Shown piece by piece: positions 24,816 to 34,468 of a stretch of 34,468 bases of DNA (positions are counted from its first letter, which is position 1; every line of letters starts with the position of its first letter). Both the position numbers and the translations under genes were made by a program. Source of the DNA: a virus (Duplodnaviria; Caudoviricetes); IMG/VR virus record IMGVR_UViG_3300037589_000222, positions 1 to 34,468 of that record; one strand, written 5' to 3'. Below the pieces are notes generated by a model. The model saw only the letters and a program-made list of their open reading frames with translations, did not search any database and was not told the DNA's origin.

Positions 24816-24846
24816 CAAATATAGCGATTTTTCAGTGAATTACGAA
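24816..24846 (-). promoter_or_regulatory. Host-type promoter TTCG-N19-TATATTTG upstream of the HNH/terminase block
   Basis: Consensus -7 element at 24816-24823. Confidence 0.55.
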
Positions 24847-26321
24847 GCTATATTATTAGTAAATAGTTGGAAAAGTTGATCTGATAATTTTGAGCTTTTT
24901 TCAGTAACTACAACTTCTTTTTCTTTTTTTGGTTTTGATGTTGATTTCTTCTTTGTGTACTTATCGCTTAGAGTGAATCCTTTGATTTCTCCGTATGCCT
25001 TATTGAGTAGGTACCAGTCTTTTTCATTTTGGAATTTGATGTGCAATGTACCTTTGTTAAATCCTTTGATTTCAAAGAAAGACCATTTGTACCACTTGTT
25101 TCTTTCAAGTCCTTCGTTAGAGTTGAAAAACTTCCATAAAGTTTCATGATCGTCGTAGTTCCCACCTGTAATATTGCAAAGGACTTTTACTAAATCATCA
25201 AGCTTCTTTTCTCTACCGTGATAGCACAATTCAACTTTTCCTGCCCTCCATGCTGGTTTTACAGTATAATTGATGATGAACTTTTTATTAAGCATGTGTC
25301 CAGAGTTGGTTTTCCATCCCTCAACACCGAATCTATTTTCATGAGTGTGTTTTGTGAAGTTGTCAATCACTTCTTCAAGAGCTTTGTTCATGGTCTGCTG
25401 TCTGGTTCCTATTATAATGTCAAACATTCTGTAAACGTTTTTCATAGTGAATGGGTACTTTTCTTGAGTCTCAACAAATCGGTTGATATCTTCCATTACT
25501 CCAGAAGTGACGTATTTACTAAGGTTCATTTTTGAAAAGATATAAGCCCAAGATCTTTTTTGCAACGTTTTAGAAAATTCTTCTTTGCTGGTCACTACTT
25601 CATTGTACGATACGCTGAATGATATTTTTTCAATTCCAATTACTGAGGTATTTCTTGTTAGATCATTGGTTAGTTCTTGCAACTTATCAAAAGTTTTCAT
25701 TGCACCAACATAACGATTCACCAAAGCACGTACCTCATTAAATTGCATGATTCCGTTTTCTTGCTGATCTTCTTCGTCTTCATCCATGAAAAAGCCTTCA
25801 AACTTTTCTTCTTGGCTTAATACTGGTTTGAATAAGCGAATCAAACCAACTTCAACACCTGTCTTTCTTTCAGCTTGAGAAAAACAATCTCCTAAATTTT
25901 CAGTTACTCCATACTTACTAATTAGTGAACTTAATTCGCGGTATCTGTAATCTTTGCTAATGGTCTGCCAATTACATAAAGAAATGATTTCGCAGCCTTC
26001 AGGAGCGATATTGTATGCATGAACTATATGCTTTTCAGCATTACTAAAAGGAGGATTCATAATAATCATGTCTACATGACTTATCTGCTCTGAAATACAA
26101 TCGAAAAAATCTTCTCCTATTAACTGAGCTTTATCCATTACGATTTTTTGTAATTCTTTGTTTTTCTCAATGGCTAGTACTTCCTTAGCTCCTAAAGATT
26201 TACAATAATCAACAATATTCTCTTTTCCAGCTTGAGGCTCTAGTACAATTTTACCAAAGCAATCAATTTGAATAGATTCTAATACGTCTTGTGGTGTTGG
26301 AAAAAACTCTCTGTCAAACAT
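24840..26321 (-). CDS. N6-adenine DNA methyltransferase with DUF4942-like C-terminus
   Basis: FFPTP, LEPQAG, DFF, IIMNPPF motifs; GWKTN and KGTLHIKF in the C-terminal half. Confidence 0.85.
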   Translation of the reverse strand: MFDREFFPTPQDVLESIQIDCFGKIVLEPQAGKENIVDYCKSLGAKEVLAIEKNKELQKIVMDKAQLIGEDFFDCISEQISHVDMIIMNPPFSNAEKHIVHAYNIAPEGCEIISLCNWQTISKDYRYRELSSLISKYGVTENLGDCFSQAERKTGVEVGLIRLFKPVLSQEEKFEGFFMDEDEEDQQENGIMQFNEVRALVNRYVGAMKTFDKLQELTNDLTRNTSVIGIEKISFSVSYNEVVTSKEEFSKTLQKRSWAYIFSKMNLSKYVTSGVMEDINRFVETQEKYPFTMKNVYRMFDIIIGTRQQTMNKALEEVIDNFTKHTHENRFGVEGWKTNSGHMLNKKFIINYTVKPAWRAGKVELCYHGREKKLDDLVKVLCNITGGNYDDHETLWKFFNSNEGLERNKWYKWSFFEIKGFNKGTLHIKFQNEKDWYLLNKAYGEIKGFTLSDKYTKKKSTSKPKKEKEVVVTEKSSKLSDQLFQLFTNNIAS

Positions 26322-26344
26322 AATTCTAACTTTTAAAGAAGAGC

Positions 26345-26731
26345 CTATTGGATAGGCTCAACTTGATGGTTACTAAACAAATTTGCAATCCCGAAGAACT
26401 CGTATTCATCTTTTTTGCCTTCTTCATTCTCTTTTTCAAATTTTCTAGGCTTTGACCAAATAAAGAATGATTTAGAACCTCTTACGACTTTGAATCCTTT
26501 TTCTTTCCAACCTTTGAATGTATTGAATTCTGTATGCTCTTCGTTTTTATACATAGTGTTCAGAATTACTTCGTTTACTGTGCTGTATAGCTCTGCTATT
26601 CCAGGAACTTCTTCAAGCATCTGCTTTGCTGTTTTACTAAATGATTTTAGTAATCTCTTTTTTTCTTCGATTCCGCTAGTTGAGAAAATTAAGTTGTAAA
26701 AGTCTTCTTTCGATTGTATTTCAGTACTCAT
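26345..26731 (-). CDS. ArdC N-terminal-like (DUF1738) ssDNA-binding domain protein
   Basis: FNTFKGWKEKGFKVVRGSK...LFSNHQV motif. Confidence 0.7.
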   Translation of the reverse strand: MSTEIQSKEDFYNLIFSTSGIEEKKRLLKSFSKTAKQMLEEVPGIAELYSTVNEVILNTMYKNEEHTEFNTFKGWKEKGFKVVRGSKSFFIWSKPRKFEKENEEGKKDEYEFFGIANLFSNHQVEPIQ

Positions 26732-26839
26732 GATATGTGTTTTTGTTTTACTTTGTAAATATACGTTACTTTTATTTACAAAACAAATATTTTTATAAAT
26801 TTTAGTAACTTTTATTTATAATTTATGTACTTTTACGGT

Positions 26840-27058
26840 ATGGCACTAAAAGCAAATAAGGTTTTTACAGCATCTTTAAAAGGTGAAGGGGTTGTTTTAT
26901 GGGATACTACTCTCAGACCTCTCTGCGTTCAACTTAGAGCGTATGATCCTGAATCACGCGGGTACATTACAATATTTAATGGACTGAAAGACTCTGGGAA
27001 ATATGAGTTTATTACGAAATCAGGAAAACAATATATTATTCAAGAGCTTACTCGTTAA
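26840..27058 (+). CDS. Antisense hypothetical protein (start 26840 or 26825)
   Basis: Fills the gap, divergent from the ArdC-like gene; TACTTTTA 4 nt before ATG 26840. Confidence 0.6.
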   Translation: MALKANKVFTASLKGEGVVLWDTTLRPLCVQLRAYDPESRGYITIFNGLKDSGKYEFITKSGKQYIIQELTR

Positions 27059-27363
27059 CTAGATTCAGTTGGTTTTACTTCCTCGCTGACTACTTCGATA
27101 TTATTGACGCTATTTGCGGTCTCAAGGAATACTGTTTCAGTCATATCAAGCCAAACAGGAGGCTGTGTTCTACCGCTATAAACTCCAAGCCATAGCTTTC
27201 CATGAAATAGGAATTTTAAACGTTCCCAGAATGATGTAGTCCAAAGGGAAATACATTCACCGCTTTCGGTTCTGCATACCCATAAACTTCCGCACTGTTC
27301 GTCAGTCATTGAATCTGGTTTTTTCAATTCTACATTTGCTTCTTTAATTTTTTTTGGTTTCAT
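27055..27363 (-). CDS. Hypothetical phage protein
   Basis: Tightly packed ORF, Trp-rich. Confidence 0.7.
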   Translation of the reverse strand: MKPKKIKEANVELKKPDSMTDEQCGSLWVCRTESGECISLWTTSFWERLKFLFHGKLWLGVYSGRTQPPVWLDMTETVFLETANSVNNIEVVSEEVKPTESS

Positions 27364-27367
27364 AATT

Positions 27368-27592
27368 TTAAAAGTTTAAAATGTTGTCTAATTGTTTGAG
27401 CTGATCGAATGTTACTACCTTTCCGACAACTTCATCAATAGTCACATCAACAGTAACTAATTTATTCAATCCTAATTCATAGGTAAATTCGATTAGAATG
27501 AATCCTTTCTTATATCTTAAAGTTTCCCATTCATCATGCTCGTAATGCTTTACTAATTCAAAGCCTAAATCAACGACTTGTTGCTCTTCCAT
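27368..27592 (-). CDS. Hypothetical phage protein
   Basis: Tightly packed ORF. Confidence 0.65.
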   Translation of the reverse strand: MEEQQVVDLGFELVKHYEHDEWETLRYKKGFILIEFTYELGLNKLVTVDVTIDEVVGKVVTFDQLKQLDNILNF

Positions 27593-27599
27593 GCTATAG

Positions 27600-27998
27600 T
27601 TAAAAGTTTTTGCTTAATATTTTTCCAAGTTCTAAACAGAAGTATTTTTTGTTGTATTCTGCACCCCATTCGGTAAGCCCCGTATCCACATCTATACCTT
27701 TTAATTCAATCACAAATTGATTCCTGTTTTTAGAAAATCCATTTGAAAAAGTTATGGTCTCAAATTTTTTGATTTCAGCCCAATAAGCTTTCATAACAGT
27801 TTTGAAATCATGATTATTCAATAAGTCATATACAATGTCTTCTGAAATCCATTTATTATCGTTTTTGGCTTCTTCAGGATAATCAACTTCAATAAGCCTT
27901 TTAGTCCAATAGGGTGTTAGGTTTCGATACTCCTCTTTCTTCTCTCCAGAAGCAATCATATCAAACCACTTCTTTTTTAAGTTTAGATGTAATGTCAT
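27600..27998 (-). CDS. ASCH domain protein
   Basis: LHLNLKKKWFDMIASGEKKEEYR signature. Confidence 0.8.
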   Translation of the reverse strand: MTLHLNLKKKWFDMIASGEKKEEYRNLTPYWTKRLIEVDYPEEAKNDNKWISEDIVYDLLNNHDFKTVMKAYWAEIKKFETITFSNGFSKNRNQFVIELKGIDVDTGLTEWGAEYNKKYFCLELGKILSKNF

Positions 27999-27999
27999 A

Positions 28000-28193
28000 C
28001 TACAGGTTTAATGCTACTGTTTTTGAGTTTTATAATGAATATTTCTACAATTCCAACAAACTAAATGACCTGTTTTGGTGTCACGGAATCCATTGAATAT
28101 ATGCGGACTGTGTGCCTTTGGTTTTGGCTGCAAATTGCAGTAATTACAGGTTTTTATGTTGGAAAATAGATTGCTCATTTTCTACAGTTTTAA
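28000..28193. repeat. 194-bp exact direct repeat, copy A
   Basis: Identical by eye to 30304-30497, offset 2304. Confidence 0.95.
28014..28178 (-). CDS. 54-aa CxxC...CxxC Zn-finger protein, copy A, not in ORF track
   Basis: MSNLFSNIKTCNYCNLQPKPKAHSPHIFNGFRDTKTGHLVCWNCRNIHYKTQKQ*. Confidence 0.75.
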   Translation of the reverse strand: MSNLFSNIKTCNYCNLQPKPKAHSPHIFNGFRDTKTGHLVCWNCRNIHYKTQKQ

Positions 28194-28399
28194 GGCAAAG
28201 CATCCCAATTCCAAGGACGATTTACTTTGCGTATTTTATTAATTCTGATTTGCTGTACTTTTTGAGGAGAAATCATCAAATCATTTTCAATCATAAAATT
28301 TCTAACTCTGTTATATGATAGATCGAGTAAATTAGCTATATCCATCATTGATAGTTTTTCTCGATTTTCTTTTATGAATTCCTTCTGATCGTCGTTCAT
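28190..28399 (-). CDS. Small HTH protein
   Basis: MSxxDIA.LL-type HTH pattern (LSMMDIANLLDLSYNRVRNF); paralog of 28644..28919. Confidence 0.65.
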   Translation of the reverse strand: MNDDQKEFIKENREKLSMMDIANLLDLSYNRVRNFMIENDLMISPQKVQQIRINKIRKVNRPWNWDALP

Positions 28400-28402
28400 T
28401 AT

Positions 28403-28657
28403 CTACAGTTTTAATAATTTTTCAATTCTATTAATGTCTGCTTTGATACTCTCCAGATGGTTGAGTCGATCTTTGTGTGCAATCTCTCTTTCAAGCACAT
28501 TTGATCTTAATGGATTTCTTGAATACCATTCGATATGTTTGAAAGCAATCTCTTGATCTGCTTTTCTTCTGTCGAGTTGTTCTTGCAGTGGTCGTTCGTT
28601 TCCATCCTTATCATACTTCCATATTAATGTTGGACATGATTTGTCAATACGCTGCAT
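28403..28657 (-). CDS. Hypothetical helical protein
   Basis: Tightly packed ORF. Confidence 0.6.
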   Translation of the reverse strand: MQRIDKSCPTLIWKYDKDGNERPLQEQLDRRKADQEIAFKHIEWYSRNPLRSNVLEREIAHKDRLNHLESIKADINRIEKLLKL

Positions 28658-28919
28658 TTGTAAAGCCTGTTATTGGATTCCAACCATATTGATAAAAAGG
28701 ATGATTCAATTTTTGGTAAATACCGCTTTTTTCCTTTTGAATCCTTTCTTGATGAGCTTGCTTTCTAAACTTCTGGATTAATTCAGGAGGTGCTTTTAAT
28801 TTTTTAGAGTTACAATAAGATAGAACTAGGCTAAATCTTACATTAAGAATCTGAGCCATTTTATTTTTACTCATTTTCAAGTAGTTTTCTTCTACAAATT
28901 TCTTTTGCTCGTCGTTCAT
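28644..28919 (-). CDS. Small HTH protein
   Basis: MSKNKMAQILNVRFSLVLSY HTH pattern. Confidence 0.65.
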   Translation of the reverse strand: MNDEQKKFVEENYLKMSKNKMAQILNVRFSLVLSYCNSKKLKAPPELIQKFRKQAHQERIQKEKSGIYQKLNHPFYQYGWNPITGFTNAAY

Positions 28920-28924
28920 GATTT

Positions 28925-29137
28925 CTACAGATTAAGTGTTAATTGTTTGTTTGATTTTCCTCGATAATATTCTCCCGTCAACCGATTGTATTGAAACCAA
29001 TTATTCGAAAATTTTGATTCGTAAGTTTTGAGATTAATAGCTTTAATCCATCCACCGCAATCAAGACACCTTGTGTCAGATTTTTCACAGTTATGATAAA
29101 CTGCTTCACACTGTGGATCTGGGCAAACTTTAATCAT
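28925..29137 (-). CDS. Zn-ribbon protein (start revised to MIKVCPDPQC)
   Basis: CPDPQC...CLDCGG; ATG follows the recurrent motif. Confidence 0.65.
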   Translation of the reverse strand: MIKVCPDPQCEAVYHNCEKSDTRCLDCGGWIKAINLKTYESKFSNNWFQYNRLTGEYYRGKSNKQLTLNL

Positions 29138-29142
29138 GATTT

Positions 29143-29328
29143 CTACTGTTTTACTGTTAGTGAATCTACTATTTGCATTCTGCACTTCTGAATGTTGTCT
29201 AAGTCTTTGTCATTACAATCAAAATATTTTTGCAAATCCTCTTTTTCTTCAATGTCTGTTATTGCATGCGCTAATATTGTGTTGATTCTTTCTGCCGTTC
29301 TTACAGACATTTTTAATTTTACTTCCAT
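29143..29328 (-). CDS. Hypothetical protein
   Basis: Tightly packed ORF preceded by a motif variant. Confidence 0.6.
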   Translation of the reverse strand: MEVKLKMSVRTAERINTILAHAITDIEEKEDLQKYFDCNDKDLDNIQKCRMQIVDSLTVKQ

Positions 29329-29337
29329 ATTCTACTA

Positions 29338-29943
29338 TTAATTTGTTATTTGATCTAAGATTGATATTTGCGTTTCCTTCTTTCCCCACTGTTTGGCAAT
29401 TGCTTTGGCAATACCTGGAAACGTTCGGCTTCTTAATTTTTGTCTTTCAGGACCTGGTGGTAACTTCCAAATTCTTTGTTCTCTACCTTCAACAATATTT
29501 GTTGATTTCAGTTTATCAAGTCCTTTAAGCCAGAAACATGTTGCTTTCGTTTCACCGTGACCATATTGCCAAGGTTGTATTAACTGATCGTACTTTCTTC
29601 CTAGAAGCTTTAGAGCGTATTTATGTGGAATTGGATTTTCAATTGCTATTCGTTCACACGGATGGTCTAAAAACAATTTAAAGAAATCACATGCTTCATA
29701 CATCTTTATCCAGCGTTTTGCGTCTTTATGCAAGTGCTGAACACCAGAATTGGCAATGTATGTGCATGGCGGGTGTGCGATAATTAAGTCCCAATCATTA
29801 TACAAGATGTCTTTTACATTTCCTTGATAATGTTGTCCAGGTATCGCGGTTTCTTGAATGTCACAACTCCATGCATCGTGACCAAGTTTTTTAAACTCTT
29901 CACGAACAATTCCGCTTTCTTCGCATGCTATTAGTACTCTCAT
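29338..29943 (-). CDS. Short phage C5-cytosine methyltransferase-like protein
   Basis: VLIACEESG, WSCD, DLIIAHPPC (catalytic PC), IENP, TFPGIAKAIA. Confidence 0.8.
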   Translation of the reverse strand: MRVLIACEESGIVREEFKKLGHDAWSCDIQETAIPGQHYQGNVKDILYNDWDLIIAHPPCTYIANSGVQHLHKDAKRWIKMYEACDFFKLFLDHPCERIAIENPIPHKYALKLLGRKYDQLIQPWQYGHGETKATCFWLKGLDKLKSTNIVEGREQRIWKLPPGPERQKLRSRTFPGIAKAIAKQWGKKETQISILDQITN

Positions 29944-29962
29944 GAAACTACAGGTTTTTAGA

Positions 29963-29978
29963 GCGCCCCGAAAGGCGC
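29963..29978 (-). other. GC-rich hairpin with UUCG loop
   Basis: GCGCCT-TTCG-GGGCGC on the minus strand, no U-tract after it. Confidence 0.6.
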
Positions 29979-29986
29979 GTTAAGTT

Positions 29987-30253
29987 TTAGCTGTCAATTG
30001 AATTTTTATAGGTGTTGACGTTTTTATAATTCACGTCAAACTGTACCGCGTTCTCTGAATGCACCTTTCCAGTAGTTTCATTTTTTAAAATGTAATCTCC
30101 TCTGTTCACTTTACCGAAATCAGTATTAACTGTACCAGAACTTACGTCTAAAAGATAATTACCAGACATATCCGTCCACCATTTAGGTACTTTTTCTTCC
30201 ATCCATCTAAATGCTTGAAAATTTTCGTTTTTGTCATTAATTACATGTTGCAT
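29987..30253 (-). CDS. Hypothetical phage protein
   Basis: AFRW...VNRGDYILK pattern. Confidence 0.65.
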   Translation of the reverse strand: MQHVINDKNENFQAFRWMEEKVPKWWTDMSGNYLLDVSSGTVNTDFGKVNRGDYILKNETTGKVHSENAVQFDVNYKNVNTYKNSIDS

Positions 30254-30303
30254 AATGTTTTATAATTTTGATTGCGTCCTTTGAAATAGGCGGTACGCGA
30301 TAC

Positions 30304-30497
30304 CTACAGGTTTAATGCTACTGTTTTTGAGTTTTATAATGAATATTTCTACAATTCCAACAAACTAAATGACCTGTTTTGGTGTCACGGAATCCATTGA
30401 ATATATGCGGACTGTGTGCCTTTGGTTTTGGCTGCAAATTGCAGTAATTACAGGTTTTTATGTTGGAAAATAGATTGCTCATTTTCTACAGTTTTAA
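30304..30497. repeat. 194-bp exact direct repeat, copy B
   Basis: Identical by eye to 28000-28193. Confidence 0.95.
30318..30482 (-). CDS. 54-aa Zn-finger protein, copy B
   Basis: Same sequence as 28014..28178. Confidence 0.75.
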   Translation of the reverse strand: MSNLFSNIKTCNYCNLQPKPKAHSPHIFNGFRDTKTGHLVCWNCRNIHYKTQKQ

Positions 30498-30507
30498 ATC
30501 TATTTTG

Positions 30508-30574
30508 CTCTGTGGGTAAGAGTCGAACCTACCGTTGTTTAAATTTACCTTTTAAACCAAATCGCCATCACAGA
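30508..30574 (-). ncRNA. tRNA-like structured element lacking a proper D-arm
   Basis: TCTGTG/CACAGA acceptor-like stem, GGTAGG-TTCGACT-CTTACC T-arm, GTTTAAA-N7-TTTAAAC arm. Confidence 0.55.
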
Positions 30575-30698
30575 TAACCATCTTTCGTCGTTGAAAGTAA
30601 AGTCACGTTCACGTATCTAACTTTTGCATCGGGATTCAGCAGAACTCTCTTTTAGCCCGTTTAATTTCTACTTATTAAAACCTGTTTTTGGTTTTAAG

Positions 30699-30890
30699 TT
30701 ATTTGATACAGTATTTTATAATTTGTCTATGAATACCATCGTGAACGGTTATTTTCTTTTCTTTGAATAGCTCGTTTAGAGCTTTTTTAATATCTCCTAG
30801 ATTTCCAACAAAATCAGAAATGTATAATCCACAATGACCGCCTGAGCCTATATGCTTTTGTTTGATTTGATCTAGTAGTTTCTGCTTCAT
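30699..30890 (-). CDS. Small hypothetical protein, possibly winged-helix
   Basis: ATGA-coupled; KKALNELFKEKKI helix followed by a beta hairpin. Confidence 0.55.
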   Translation of the reverse strand: MKQKLLDQIKQKHIGSGGHCGLYISDFVGNLGDIKKALNELFKEKKITVHDGIHRQIIKYCIK

Positions 30891-31693
30891 TTTTCTTCTG
30901 TACCAGCATACCTGTTATGAATTTCCTTTTCTACGATTTCATAAACTTGTGCATCATAGTTTTCCGAGTTTTCACCATTGAGTTTTAAATATTCTCTTAG
31001 TTTATCTTCACTCACATTTTGGGCTTCAATACGTACTTTCTCTAAATAATCCGTTCTATTGGTAACGATTCCTTTTTTCTGTAATCGCTTTTTATGTCTT
31101 GAGCCTAAGCCCGATCCGTTTCGATTATGATTTACTTTTTCGTCTCCAATACCTTCAAACATTTTAGAAGCTACTTTAGGATCGATTCCATTCAATGTGA
31201 TTCCTTTGAAATCATCTTTTGCTTTTTGATGTTGGTTTTCTCTTTCCTGAGCTTTTAGTTCTAAGTATGCGGGAATCCATTTGTGAAACACAGTTTGGCT
31301 ATCAAGCCTAAAATCTTTACCGTCTCCGATTTTTCCTTGACGAGCATATTTAAACATCAATGCAACATCTTCAAGAGTTTCATATCCAAAGACCTCGAAT
31401 AAATCTAATGCCATCATTGAAGCTTGAGTTGGCGTGAACTTTTTACCAACATTGAAATTCTCAGATAATCTAAGCGCTAAGTATGCTATGGCTTTGATTA
31501 CGTTCTTTTTTTCAATTTGAGTGGAAAGCTTATTGAGTTGAATTCCATCCATTGCTTTTGATACAGTAAGTTCACTCTCAAAAACAATAAGCTCACTCGT
31601 ATCATTTTTAGCCAAGCAACTCATCAACTGCATGGTTGACTTCTGACTTAATGTCGCTATCTGATTTGGCGTAACTTGTATTCCTGTTTCCAT
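30887..31693 (-). CDS. Replication-associated protein, possible helicase loader
   Basis: Overlaps and follows the initiator gene; function positional. Confidence 0.45.
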   Translation of the reverse strand: METGIQVTPNQIATLSQKSTMQLMSCLAKNDTSELIVFESELTVSKAMDGIQLNKLSTQIEKKNVIKAIAYLALRLSENFNVGKKFTPTQASMMALDLFEVFGYETLEDVALMFKYARQGKIGDGKDFRLDSQTVFHKWIPAYLELKAQERENQHQKAKDDFKGITLNGIDPKVASKMFEGIGDEKVNHNRNGSGLGSRHKKRLQKKGIVTNRTDYLEKVRIEAQNVSEDKLREYLKLNGENSENYDAQVYEIVEKEIHNRYAGTEEK

Positions 31694-32447
31694 TGCTAAT
31701 TATTTCGTCTTTCCAAGACTGGTTGTTTAAAAAAGTTTCAGGGTTCTTTCGGTATTGCTTGTTTGGTTGAGCTTGTTTGTAATTTGGAATGTAAATCATG
31801 ATTGCTTCCTTAGTTTGCTGAGAAAGCTTTTCCCATTTAGCTTTTATCTTTTCTTTTCTTCCAACTTTTTTATCATACTCATTCCAAAAATCATCGAACG
31901 TCGGATATATTTCTACATCTACATTTTCATTTTTAATTACATTTCCATCTTCATTTGCATTTGCATTTGCTTTATTGTTAACCATTTGGTTAACCATTTT
32001 TTTAAACCACTCTCTAACCTTTGATTTTATTAGGTTTTCATCTTTAATTACTTCACCATTTTCTTTGATGAAATCGTCCATGATGAACAATTTTTTTATT
32101 TTTTCTTGCTGCTTTTTATTTAATTTTGATCGAGAAATTAAACCTGCAAAACAAGCTGCGGCGGTTTTTTTTGGTTTGTTCGTTGACCGTTTGGCTATCT
32201 CTTCGGCTAACCTAACGTTTAACCAACCGTCAACCATTTGGTTGAACTTTTGGTTAAGCACGTCCTTAATGGTTTGTTCAGTACAACCTGAACAATACAT
32301 TAATAATCTCCGTGTGTCGTTCGGGATTGTTCCATTTTGGTGCTGGTAGATTAATAAGTCTACGTAGCATGCGCGTTCCTCTGGAAGCATCATGCGAGTA
32401 CCTTCATAGAAGTCTTTAGAATAGAATAAGAATGCTGGATCTTTCAT
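31608..32447 (-). CDS. Replication initiator (DUF1376/YdaU-like N-terminus)
   Basis: PAFLFYSKDF...EERACYVDLL; C-terminal FDDFWNEYDKK...NPETFLN..W.DE. Confidence 0.8.
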   Translation of the reverse strand: MKDPAFLFYSKDFYEGTRMMLPEERACYVDLLIYQHQNGTIPNDTRRLLMYCSGCTEQTIKDVLNQKFNQMVDGWLNVRLAEEIAKRSTNKPKKTAAACFAGLISRSKLNKKQQEKIKKLFIMDDFIKENGEVIKDENLIKSKVREWFKKMVNQMVNNKANANANEDGNVIKNENVDVEIYPTFDDFWNEYDKKVGRKEKIKAKWEKLSQQTKEAIMIYIPNYKQAQPNKQYRKNPETFLNNQSWKDEIISNGNRNTSYAKSDSDIKSEVNHAVDELLG

Positions 32448-33730: not shown

Positions 33731-34468
33731 TTAGAAAGAAATTAGGTTCTTAAATTTTTGAAAACCGTATGCATTTGTTTTTTCTAGGATCGGGTATAAT
33801 TCTTTTGCGGTGATGCTTTCAACGGTAATGTTGTTTTGCTCACGCCAATTTTTCACACCTAATTCACATGCTCCTGTAATAATTCGGTAGTAGTTATCTG
33901 TGATTACTGTGTCTTCATTTATTGGTTCATTTTGAAGTTTCTCAGCAACTATTTTAAACTGCACGTCACTTATAGCCTTTTTAACGGTACTACCATGAGC
34001 AAAATGACTTTCCTTTTCAGCCACATAACAATCGGTCTTTTGAATATTACCTCTTCTGATTCCATAGAAATTGAATCCTGAGTAAATTTTTATTCCTTTA
34101 GAAGTCTTCTTTGATGTTATAGCAAAGATGTAACCGTCTACTATTTTCACATCGTACTTCTTTCCTTTGATTTCAACCGCAGTCAATTGGTTTCCGTCAA
34201 ACGCCCCTGAGCCAATGTGAGTGACACTGTTAGGGATTTCAACCGCAGTCAATTGGTTTCCGTCAAACGCCCAGTCGCCAATGTGAGTGACACTGTTAGG
34301 GATTTCAACCGCAGTCAATTGGTTTCCGTCAAACGCCCAGTCGCCAATGTGAGTGACACTGTTAGGGATTTCAACCGCAGTCAATTGGTTTCCGTCAAAC
34401 GCCCCTGAGCCAATGTGAGTGACACTGTTAGGGATTTCAACCGCAGTCAATTGGTTTCCGTCAAACGC
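33731..34468 (-). CDS. BspA-type leucine-rich repeat protein, 5'-truncated by window end
   Basis: 22-aa repeats NQLTAVEIPNSVTHIG(DW/SG)AFDG; frame open to the window edge. Confidence 0.88.
   Translation of the reverse strand, partial: AFDGNQLTAVEIPNSVTHIGSGAFDGNQLTAVEIPNSVTHIGDWAFDGNQLTAVEIPNSVTHIGDWAFDGNQLTAVEIPNSVTHIGSGAFDGNQLTAVEIKGKKYDVKIVDGYIFAITSKKTSKGIKIYSGFNFYGIRRGNIQKTDCYVAEKESHFAHGSTVKKAISDVQFKIVAEKLQNEPINEDTVITDNYYRIITGACELGVKNWREQNNITVESITAKELYPILEKTNAYGFQKFKNLISF
34169..34468. repeat. 66-bp tandem repeat, at least 4.5 units
   Basis: Units start at 34169, 34235, 34301, 34367, 34433; two alleles differing only in two codons. Confidence 0.95.

Follow-up and report, generated by a model that had tools for sequence, protein, structure and literature searches.

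A 28-bp site delimits gene cassettes in a tailed-phage provirus and is linked to a clade of small serine recombinases

What delimits a run of small accessory genes in a temperate phage genome, and what moves them? The question is raised by a 34,468-nt stretch of viral DNA (IMG/VR record IMGVR_UViG_3300037589_000222; the window, below), a 34.5-kb provirus record that is 66% complete. It belongs to a tailed, temperate phage whose terminase, portal, capsid, tape measure and holin genes lie on the minus strand and whose relatives fall in Flavobacteriaceae. An array of small accessory genes sits between its replication module and its late genes (27583..30502, minus strand). The original prediction saw in it a recurrent short motif and offered two explanations, a recombination site that shuffles one-gene cassettes, integron-like in logic but unlike attC, and a translation or RNA-processing signal. 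We find that the motif is real and marks cassette boundaries, and the recombination-site explanation is strongly supported, with a small serine recombinase as the likely enzyme. We put at roughly 75% the probability that a ~28-bp dyad containing the motif is the crossover site of one clade of small serine recombinases, which excises cassettes as circles and inserts them at other sites.

A site at cassette boundaries

As first reported, all ten listed motif sites are present on the minus strand and nine of the ten lie 1-5 nt ahead of an ATG, the exception being the site at 30304. Exact matches to TWAAAMCTGTAG number five, all within 28000-30497, and at up to two mismatches the motif is mildly enriched over the whole window (33 matches, 19.6 expected; 2 of 100 shuffles reach 33). 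A 28-bp site matrix trained without window sequences placed its 12 best window matches inside the array. At 11 bits or more it found 12 sites in the 3,170 nt of the array, one in the other 31,298 nt of the same strand and one on the plus strand; shuffled arrays gave 0.24 sites on average and at most 3. Of the 11 array genes, 8 have a site 0-20 nt ahead of them, as does none of the 34 other window genes tested, in agreement with the earlier remark that the motif had not been seen before structural genes.

Three features had gone unnoticed: the extension of the motif by ~13 bp on both sides of a GT dinucleotide, two further sites centred on 30321 and 28017, and a 194-nt unit, running from motif to motif, that occurs twice with 100% identity (28000-28193 and 30304-30497). 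In five pond assemblies, any of which may have given rise to the record, this unit forms one piece at about twice the depth of its flanks (54 versus 30-34; 1400 versus 717-750; 2269 versus 920-1051; 1010 versus 498-543; 1174 versus 592-619), and it is therefore a duplication rather than an assembly error.

Every GTAG at an open reading frame (ORF) boundary was collected from 24 arrays, giving 159 distinct sites. The site is an imperfect inverted repeat of ~28 bp around GT, with ~13 bp on each side. Its symmetry score is 0.46 for the GT centre and 0.26-0.35 for eight other centres. Positions 4-7 are A/T on both sides, C stands at −2 in 100/159 sites opposite G, position −10 is a pyrimidine in 119/159 (background 0.36) and +10 a purine in 137/159 (background 0.60), including 53 of the 69 sites that have no ATG close by. 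When the centre was not constrained, GT occupied 157 of 206 arm-only matches in arrays versus 5 of 79 in host DNA, using a matrix that had been trained on GT sites of these same arrays. Most array boundaries leave less than 20 nt between genes, and many sites are squeezed between a stop codon and an ATG.

Arrays of such sites recur in other genomes. A 17-mer scan of viral contigs returned 118 loci, one of them with an array (L231, provirus G006). This array counts 16 sites over 6 kb, has the genomic position of the window array and has only one array-flanking gene in common with the window. A genome scan returned 120 loci, with arrays in L475 (Tenacibaculum caenipelagi, the same prophage as L231) and in L496 and L426 (Tenacibaculum sp.). 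A pattern search matched 10 of 161 genomes of the Tenacibaculum genus group, and extended loci contained more one-strand arrays, in several kinds of prophage and in chromosomes. All 19 sites of the chromosomal array of L426 are on a single strand, and the orthologous locus in G489 lacks the 12.2-kb insert of L426. Another loose motif scan of viral contigs gave 116 loci and no array, and the matches of both viral scans were nearly all due to chance. Anchoring on the terminase, the initiator or the 268-aa gene gave short or distant loci, only G001 being informative. No upstream site was seen by eye in the first 44 of 80 methyltransferase homologs, and an exact 16-mer occurred in 5 of 401 Flavobacteriaceae genomes, the four matches outside G011 being due to chance.

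The original prediction suggested testing whether synteny breakpoints in related prophages fall on the motif. From 20 alignments at ≥82% identity we kept 12 with at least 88% identity and at least 150 nt, dropping one coding tandem repeat. In these near-identical pairs 22 of 24 cassette ends have a site no more than 30 nt away in both partners, a proximity shared by 16% of array positions; because three pairs represent one cassette, some of the ends are not independent of one another. At 5′ ends the partners agree in the right arm (11-13 of 13 positions), and in 7/11 the first difference in the left arm falls at −1 or −2; at 3′ ends they agree over the whole left arm (13 of 13) in 8/11, and in 5/11 the second base of the right arm is the first to differ. 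The exchange therefore lies within G-T-A, and such a switch of identity fits a serine recombinase with its 2-bp overlap. The left arm moves together with the upstream cassette, which led us to reject a target-duplication model.

Cassettes are also reshuffled among neighbours. Three cassettes of L595 are each present twice, every copy among new neighbours, and the 246 array ORFs fall into 197 families, with the same downstream family kept in 12 of 55 homologous ORF pairs. The one gene per cassette proposed originally is not a strict rule, since some cassettes hold two or more. A Tad2-like anti-defence domain, ASCH/DUF3850 proteins and several methylases are found as cassettes.

The linked small serine recombinase

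A search for a recombinase in the rest of the prophage, suggested with the original prediction, found no resolvase in the window; close relatives carry one directly upstream of the array. A PF00239 resolvase gene (E 2e-32) directly precedes the array of L595 and a site in G001, the two proteins being 79% identical to each other. Homologs at E ≤1e-40 numbered 78, from Tenacibaculum, Dokdonia and Winogradskyella, and 15 of 267 genus genomes matched the recombinase, with 11 loci at ≥48% identity. We compared these 11 loci and G001 (the clade set of intact recombinases, n = 12) with 14 controls, 13 of 21 family-genome loci and L645; controls L646 and L696 were left out, their gene having been missed by tblastn. 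By a matrix whose training set was 91 sites of arrays without an adjacent resolvase, 11/12 clade loci have 3-15 downstream same-strand sites within 6 kb, and the 14 other resolvases have none. The twelfth clade locus offers 597 nt of sequence and one site. Clade loci have 0-1 sites upstream and 0-1 on the opposite strand. A quick tree places the 12 array-linked enzymes together on one side of a branch (Shimodaira-Hasegawa-like approximate likelihood ratio test, SH-aLRT, 82). A Dokdonia query of 401 family genomes found no clade-level recombinase (best 45% identity), and cultured phages yielded no close relative (all <60%).

In L643 and L644 the gene order is initiator, second replication gene, winged-helix gene, resolvase, array; L644 holds a homolog of the window initiator and L643 one of its winged-helix gene. 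Across loci the enzyme and array follow the large terminase or the replication genes, or lie in a chromosome. The active-site residues R9, S11, R69 and R72 are conserved in 34 homologs, and the clade enzyme has a conserved basic C-terminal tail. A predicted model (predicted local distance difference test score, pLDDT, 84.7) has three C-terminal helices and γδ and Tn3 resolvase as its best folds, and the relatives are thus predicted to possess the parts of a small serine recombinase: a catalytic domain with Ser nucleophile and Arg residues, a long E helix and a C-terminal helix-turn-helix. The site has, as a sequence pattern, the properties of a crossover site (~28 bp, inverted arms, 2-bp centre). 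In the available portion of PMC2602789, Tn3 site I is likewise a 28-bp crossover site, with C-terminal domains binding its ends. Upstream of the clade gene stands an arm-like sequence whose centre is mostly a different one and which may be regulatory.

In the mechanism that we propose, a recombinase dimer would bind each site and half-sites would be exchanged across the 2-bp GT overlap, so that cassettes would leave as circles and then enter other sites. In this scheme catalysis, the circular intermediates and the directionality are all inferred. The non-palindromic GT would hold sites in one orientation, so excision, insertion and duplication would occur, and no inversion. New cassettes would be made if the enzyme acted on sequences in foreign DNA that resemble the site by chance, whichever way the gene points, a capture that would be helped by stop codons and start regions suited to the AT-rich arms. 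The window would then hold an orphan array: the enzyme would be supplied in trans, or an ancestor with the recombinase gene would have left the array behind.

Several observations weigh against recombination by this clade. The window, at 66% completeness, has no resolvase, and a clade profile found no match in four of five other array-bearing genomes and a weak match elsewhere in one; orphan arrays are thus common. The sister enzyme of the clade in the quick tree, L684, has no array, and the clade loci are kin, three of them from one genome, so that a Fisher p of 1.6e-6 overstates the case. The site itself is AT-rich and low in information, and the AG of its right arm was fixed by site selection and so is no evidence. 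Three ends fit a clean exchange poorly: L643/L644 show differences within the inner left arm, and in L585/L586 and in L426/L587 the 3′ ends of the partners do not fall at the same site. No excised-circle or deletion junction was found in eight pond assemblies, searched at contig level, where rare variants are dropped. The wild-type Tn3 resolvase requires accessory sites and performs resolution only, in the part of PMC2602789 available, so insertion at lone sites needs an unusual enzyme. The same portion describes activated Tn3 resolvase mutants that recombine a lone site I in all modes, intermolecular ones included.

Could these be true crossover sites worked in trans by another enzyme, a tyrosine recombinase or an HUH/REP-type (repetitive extragenic palindrome) transposase, with the resolvase a passenger that marks variable regions? 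Arrays do occur in genomes without the clade enzyme, and some cassettes open with GTAG and a hairpin, a REP-like start. However, tyrosine recombinases use an overlap of 6-8 bp, whereas partners here share at most 3 bp across the exchange point. None of 22 tyrosine-integrase loci in three array-rich genomes has an array, the most being 3 sites at L612; G012 has a 19-site array and no Y1 transposase match; and among resolvases the sites lie solely downstream of the clade gene. Small serine recombinases are also general markers of defence islands, according to the accessible portion of PMC13552941, as a passenger role would have it. We regard an enzyme in trans as unlikely. Another rival sees in the motif a short linker at which phage or host recombination shuffles genes by homology, as with the early-promoter stem-loop (PeSL) elements of T4-type phages. 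It would suit the nin-like accessory region that the array occupies, and PeSL cassettes make mini-circles without a known recombinase in the available part of PMC2839356. There, though, PeSL homology spans ~100 bp and crossover positions vary, whereas the arms of our sites differ between partners and exchange maps to G-T-A. A linker would moreover leave the dyad symmetry, the chromosomal arrays and the linkage to one clade unexplained, and we consider it quite improbable.

The second explanation of the original prediction, a translation-initiation or RNA-processing signal, can be taken with the idea of an operator that the resolvase binds as repressor. An ATG does lie within 14 nt of 90/159 sites, and the single orientation and overlap with upstream stops resemble the start-associated sequences (SAS) of cluster K mycobacteriophages, as these appear in the available portion of PMC3203893. 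Yet 69/159 sites have no ATG within that distance, 15 abut the stop codon of an oppositely oriented gene, and the 19 one-strand sites of L426 accompany many genes on the other strand. A site stands ahead of the gene start in 1 of 244 host genes, and segments of three cultured Flavobacteriaceae phages (Leef_1, Harreka_1 and phi46:3) hold no array. An identity switch at the motif centre is also not expected from a signal, to which we give hardly any credence.

The window array and its surroundings

All array features lie on the minus strand and are described in the direction of transcription. The first strong site (30475..30502; GT centre at 30489, 18.1 bits) opens copy 1 of the 194-nt cassette (30304..30497), which is bounded by sites and contains a 54-aa cysteine-rich ORF (30318-30482). 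The site centred on 30321 (30307..30334, 15.2 bits) provides the stop codon of this ORF, and that centred on 30307 (30293..30320, 17.9 bits) has no ATG directly after it. An 88-aa gene (29987..30253) and a GC hairpin precede the site centred on 29951 (29937..29964, 12.9 bits). Then comes a DNA methyltransferase cassette (29338..29943; PHROG 757), whose homolog in G001 is likewise preceded by a site. The site centred on 29335 (29321..29348, 13.8 bits) leads to a 61-aa gene (29143..29328) with its stop codon within the next site, centred on 29146 (29132..29159, 20.1 bits). The same arrangement holds for a 70-aa cysteine-rich gene (28925..29137) and the site centred on 28928 (28914..28941, 16.8 bits).

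A two-gene cassette (28403..28919; 91 aa and 84 aa) is followed by the site centred on 28406 (28392..28419, 20.4 bits) and by a 69-aa gene (28190..28399) that is a paralog of the 91-aa gene, with a weak match to DNA-binding proteins. Copy 2 of the 194-nt cassette (28000..28193; ORF 28014-28178) has sites centred on 28185, 28017 and 28003. The last gene, of 132 aa (27600..27998; PHROG 625), has a homolog in L413 that is likewise site-bounded, and the last site (27583..27610), listed originally at 27594, is degenerate (AT centre, 0.4 bits) and predicted to be inactive towards GT sites. PADLOC gave no match for ten window cassette proteins and Rfam none in 26000-31500; atlas matches of the 54-aa protein are unnamed phage proteins only.

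Upstream of the array, ~200 nt of non-coding DNA (30498..30698) occupy the place where L643 and L644 have the recombinase gene. This stretch includes a hairpin resembling a tRNA T-arm (30498-30700, minus strand; no Rfam match, folding z-score −0.2). Beyond it lie the anchor genes common, by homology, to recombinase-bearing relatives (30699..32447), namely a 63-aa winged-helix gene, a 268-aa gene and the replication initiator (31608-32447), which contains iteron-like short direct repeats at 31977-32269. Directly downstream of the array lie a DUF4942 methyltransferase gene and a gene with an ArdC-like N-terminal domain (24840-26731), without sites. A BspA-type leucine-rich-repeat gene with 66-nt tandem repeats ends the window (33731-34468), the contig end falling within the repeats.

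Other loci gave further observations. Long cassettes of L426, L587-L591 and L594 have a common ~86-nt 3′ end (terminator-like hairpin and left arm) and a ~55-nt 5′ leader, which may mean that some cassettes come with expression signals of their own; an own hairpin or long conserved end is confined to a subset of cassettes. The Tad2-like anti-defence cassette occurs twice in L595 (8652-8864 and 9449-9661), and one cassette of L231 (3278-4090) has a weak PADLOC match to UzuA. In L641, L680, L682, L683, L583 and L587 several arrays are followed by a common gene set unlike tailed-phage morphogenesis genes, possibly another provirus class. The relative G001 has a tRNA-like gene with undefined anticodon upstream of its terminase genes (L119:444-529). 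In the Polaribacter phage Leef_1 (L698:7886-11000), small genes with different, mutually similar boundary words stand beside an annotated integrase, and five methyltransferase homologs (L362, L367, L368, L382 and L389) have another conserved upstream element in common. These boundary words and this element may reflect a second, attC-like cassette system in Bacteroidota phages.

Comparison with known systems

Integrons are the textbook cassette system, with an IntI tyrosine recombinase, an attI site and attC hairpins with RYYYAAC...GTTRRRY ends; Bacteroidota are generally regarded as mostly lacking them. Arrays of short gene modules linked to a recombinase are also known as the recombinase-associated acquired interbacterial defence (rAID) arrays of Bacteroidales and as plasmid dif (pdif) modules, which use Xer-type tyrosine recombinases and different sites. 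The arrays described here resemble integrons in their compact, mostly promoterless genes with one site each and all sites in one orientation, and hold mobile cassettes bounded by like-oriented sites. With integrons and integrase-less clusters they share a recombinase gene at one end, orphan arrays and duplicated or reshuffled cassettes. In contrast to the tyrosine integrase of integrons, the linked enzyme is a small serine recombinase whose gene lies co-oriented upstream of the array (PF00239 in relatives; the window lacks PF00589). The site, too, is different: a double-stranded, AT-rich dyad of ~28 bp around a 2-bp centre, often placed from stop to ATG without room for a hairpin, whereas attC is a long single-strand hairpin; no attC covariance model was run. 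The array works like an integron but fails the integron's defining features. This comparison draws in part on the accessible text of PMC4792948.

We think it likely that this is a second, independently evolved cassette system, run by a small serine recombinase that is naturally deregulated and that uses lone 28-bp sites to capture genes, excise and duplicate them and insert them again. It would build arrays shared by unrelated prophages and host chromosomes of marine Flavobacteriaceae and move methylases, Tad2-like anti-defence genes and host accessory genes. Searches of published full texts, a body in which subscription papers are thinly covered, found neither the sites nor any cassette array based on a serine recombinase described. 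If this proposal is correct, gene-cassette arrays evolved twice, and phage mosaicism in nin-like regions, usually credited to chance recombination, would have a defined enzyme and site. The arrays are also a searchable source of small phage genes.

Tn3/γδ resolvases and Hin/Gin invertases are alike in protein family and fold and, as far as the available part of PMC2602789 goes, in crossover-site size and central dinucleotide. They work on a fixed pair of sites, together with accessory sites or an enhancer, and are limited to resolution or inversion, whereas in our arrays passenger genes are flanked by as many as ~19 lone sites in direct repeat. A 114-bp res, with its accessory sites II and III and a neighbouring transposase, is not seen; our sites are lone and often flanked by coding sequence, and no transposase-like ORF was noticed by eye beside the clade loci, family scans having covered some of these loci only. 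A wild-type small serine recombinase working on lone 28-bp sites, if confirmed, would bear on resolvase activation and might make a compact tool.

The PeSL elements, in the portion of PMC2839356 available, are also conserved intergenic elements that flank variable small phage genes and take part in excision and insertion. They consist of a ~100-bp promoter and stem-loop and are homology-driven, with no recombinase identified in that portion; in our arrays, instead, the dyad is short, the point of exchange is fixed and an enzyme is linked, and no such promoter and stem-loop stands at every boundary. The SAS share a short, one-orientation motif a few nucleotides ahead of the ATG of non-structural genes, sometimes including the upstream stop. 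In the available text of PMC3203893 they have a Shine-Dalgarno core and are read as translation signals, and cassette exchange is not described; our sites lack that core and the nearly constant position directly before a start codon.

Defence-island markers are the last point of comparison, small serine recombinases being tied to variable accessory genes, in Bacteroidota too, in the accessible portion of PMC13552941. Mobilisation is merely postulated there, and the main text of PMC13552941 uses neither 'recombination site' nor 'integron'. The Bacteroidota loci listed with that paper may include members of the present clade, and the proposed cassette system could explain mechanistically why small serine recombinases are reported to be associated with defence islands.

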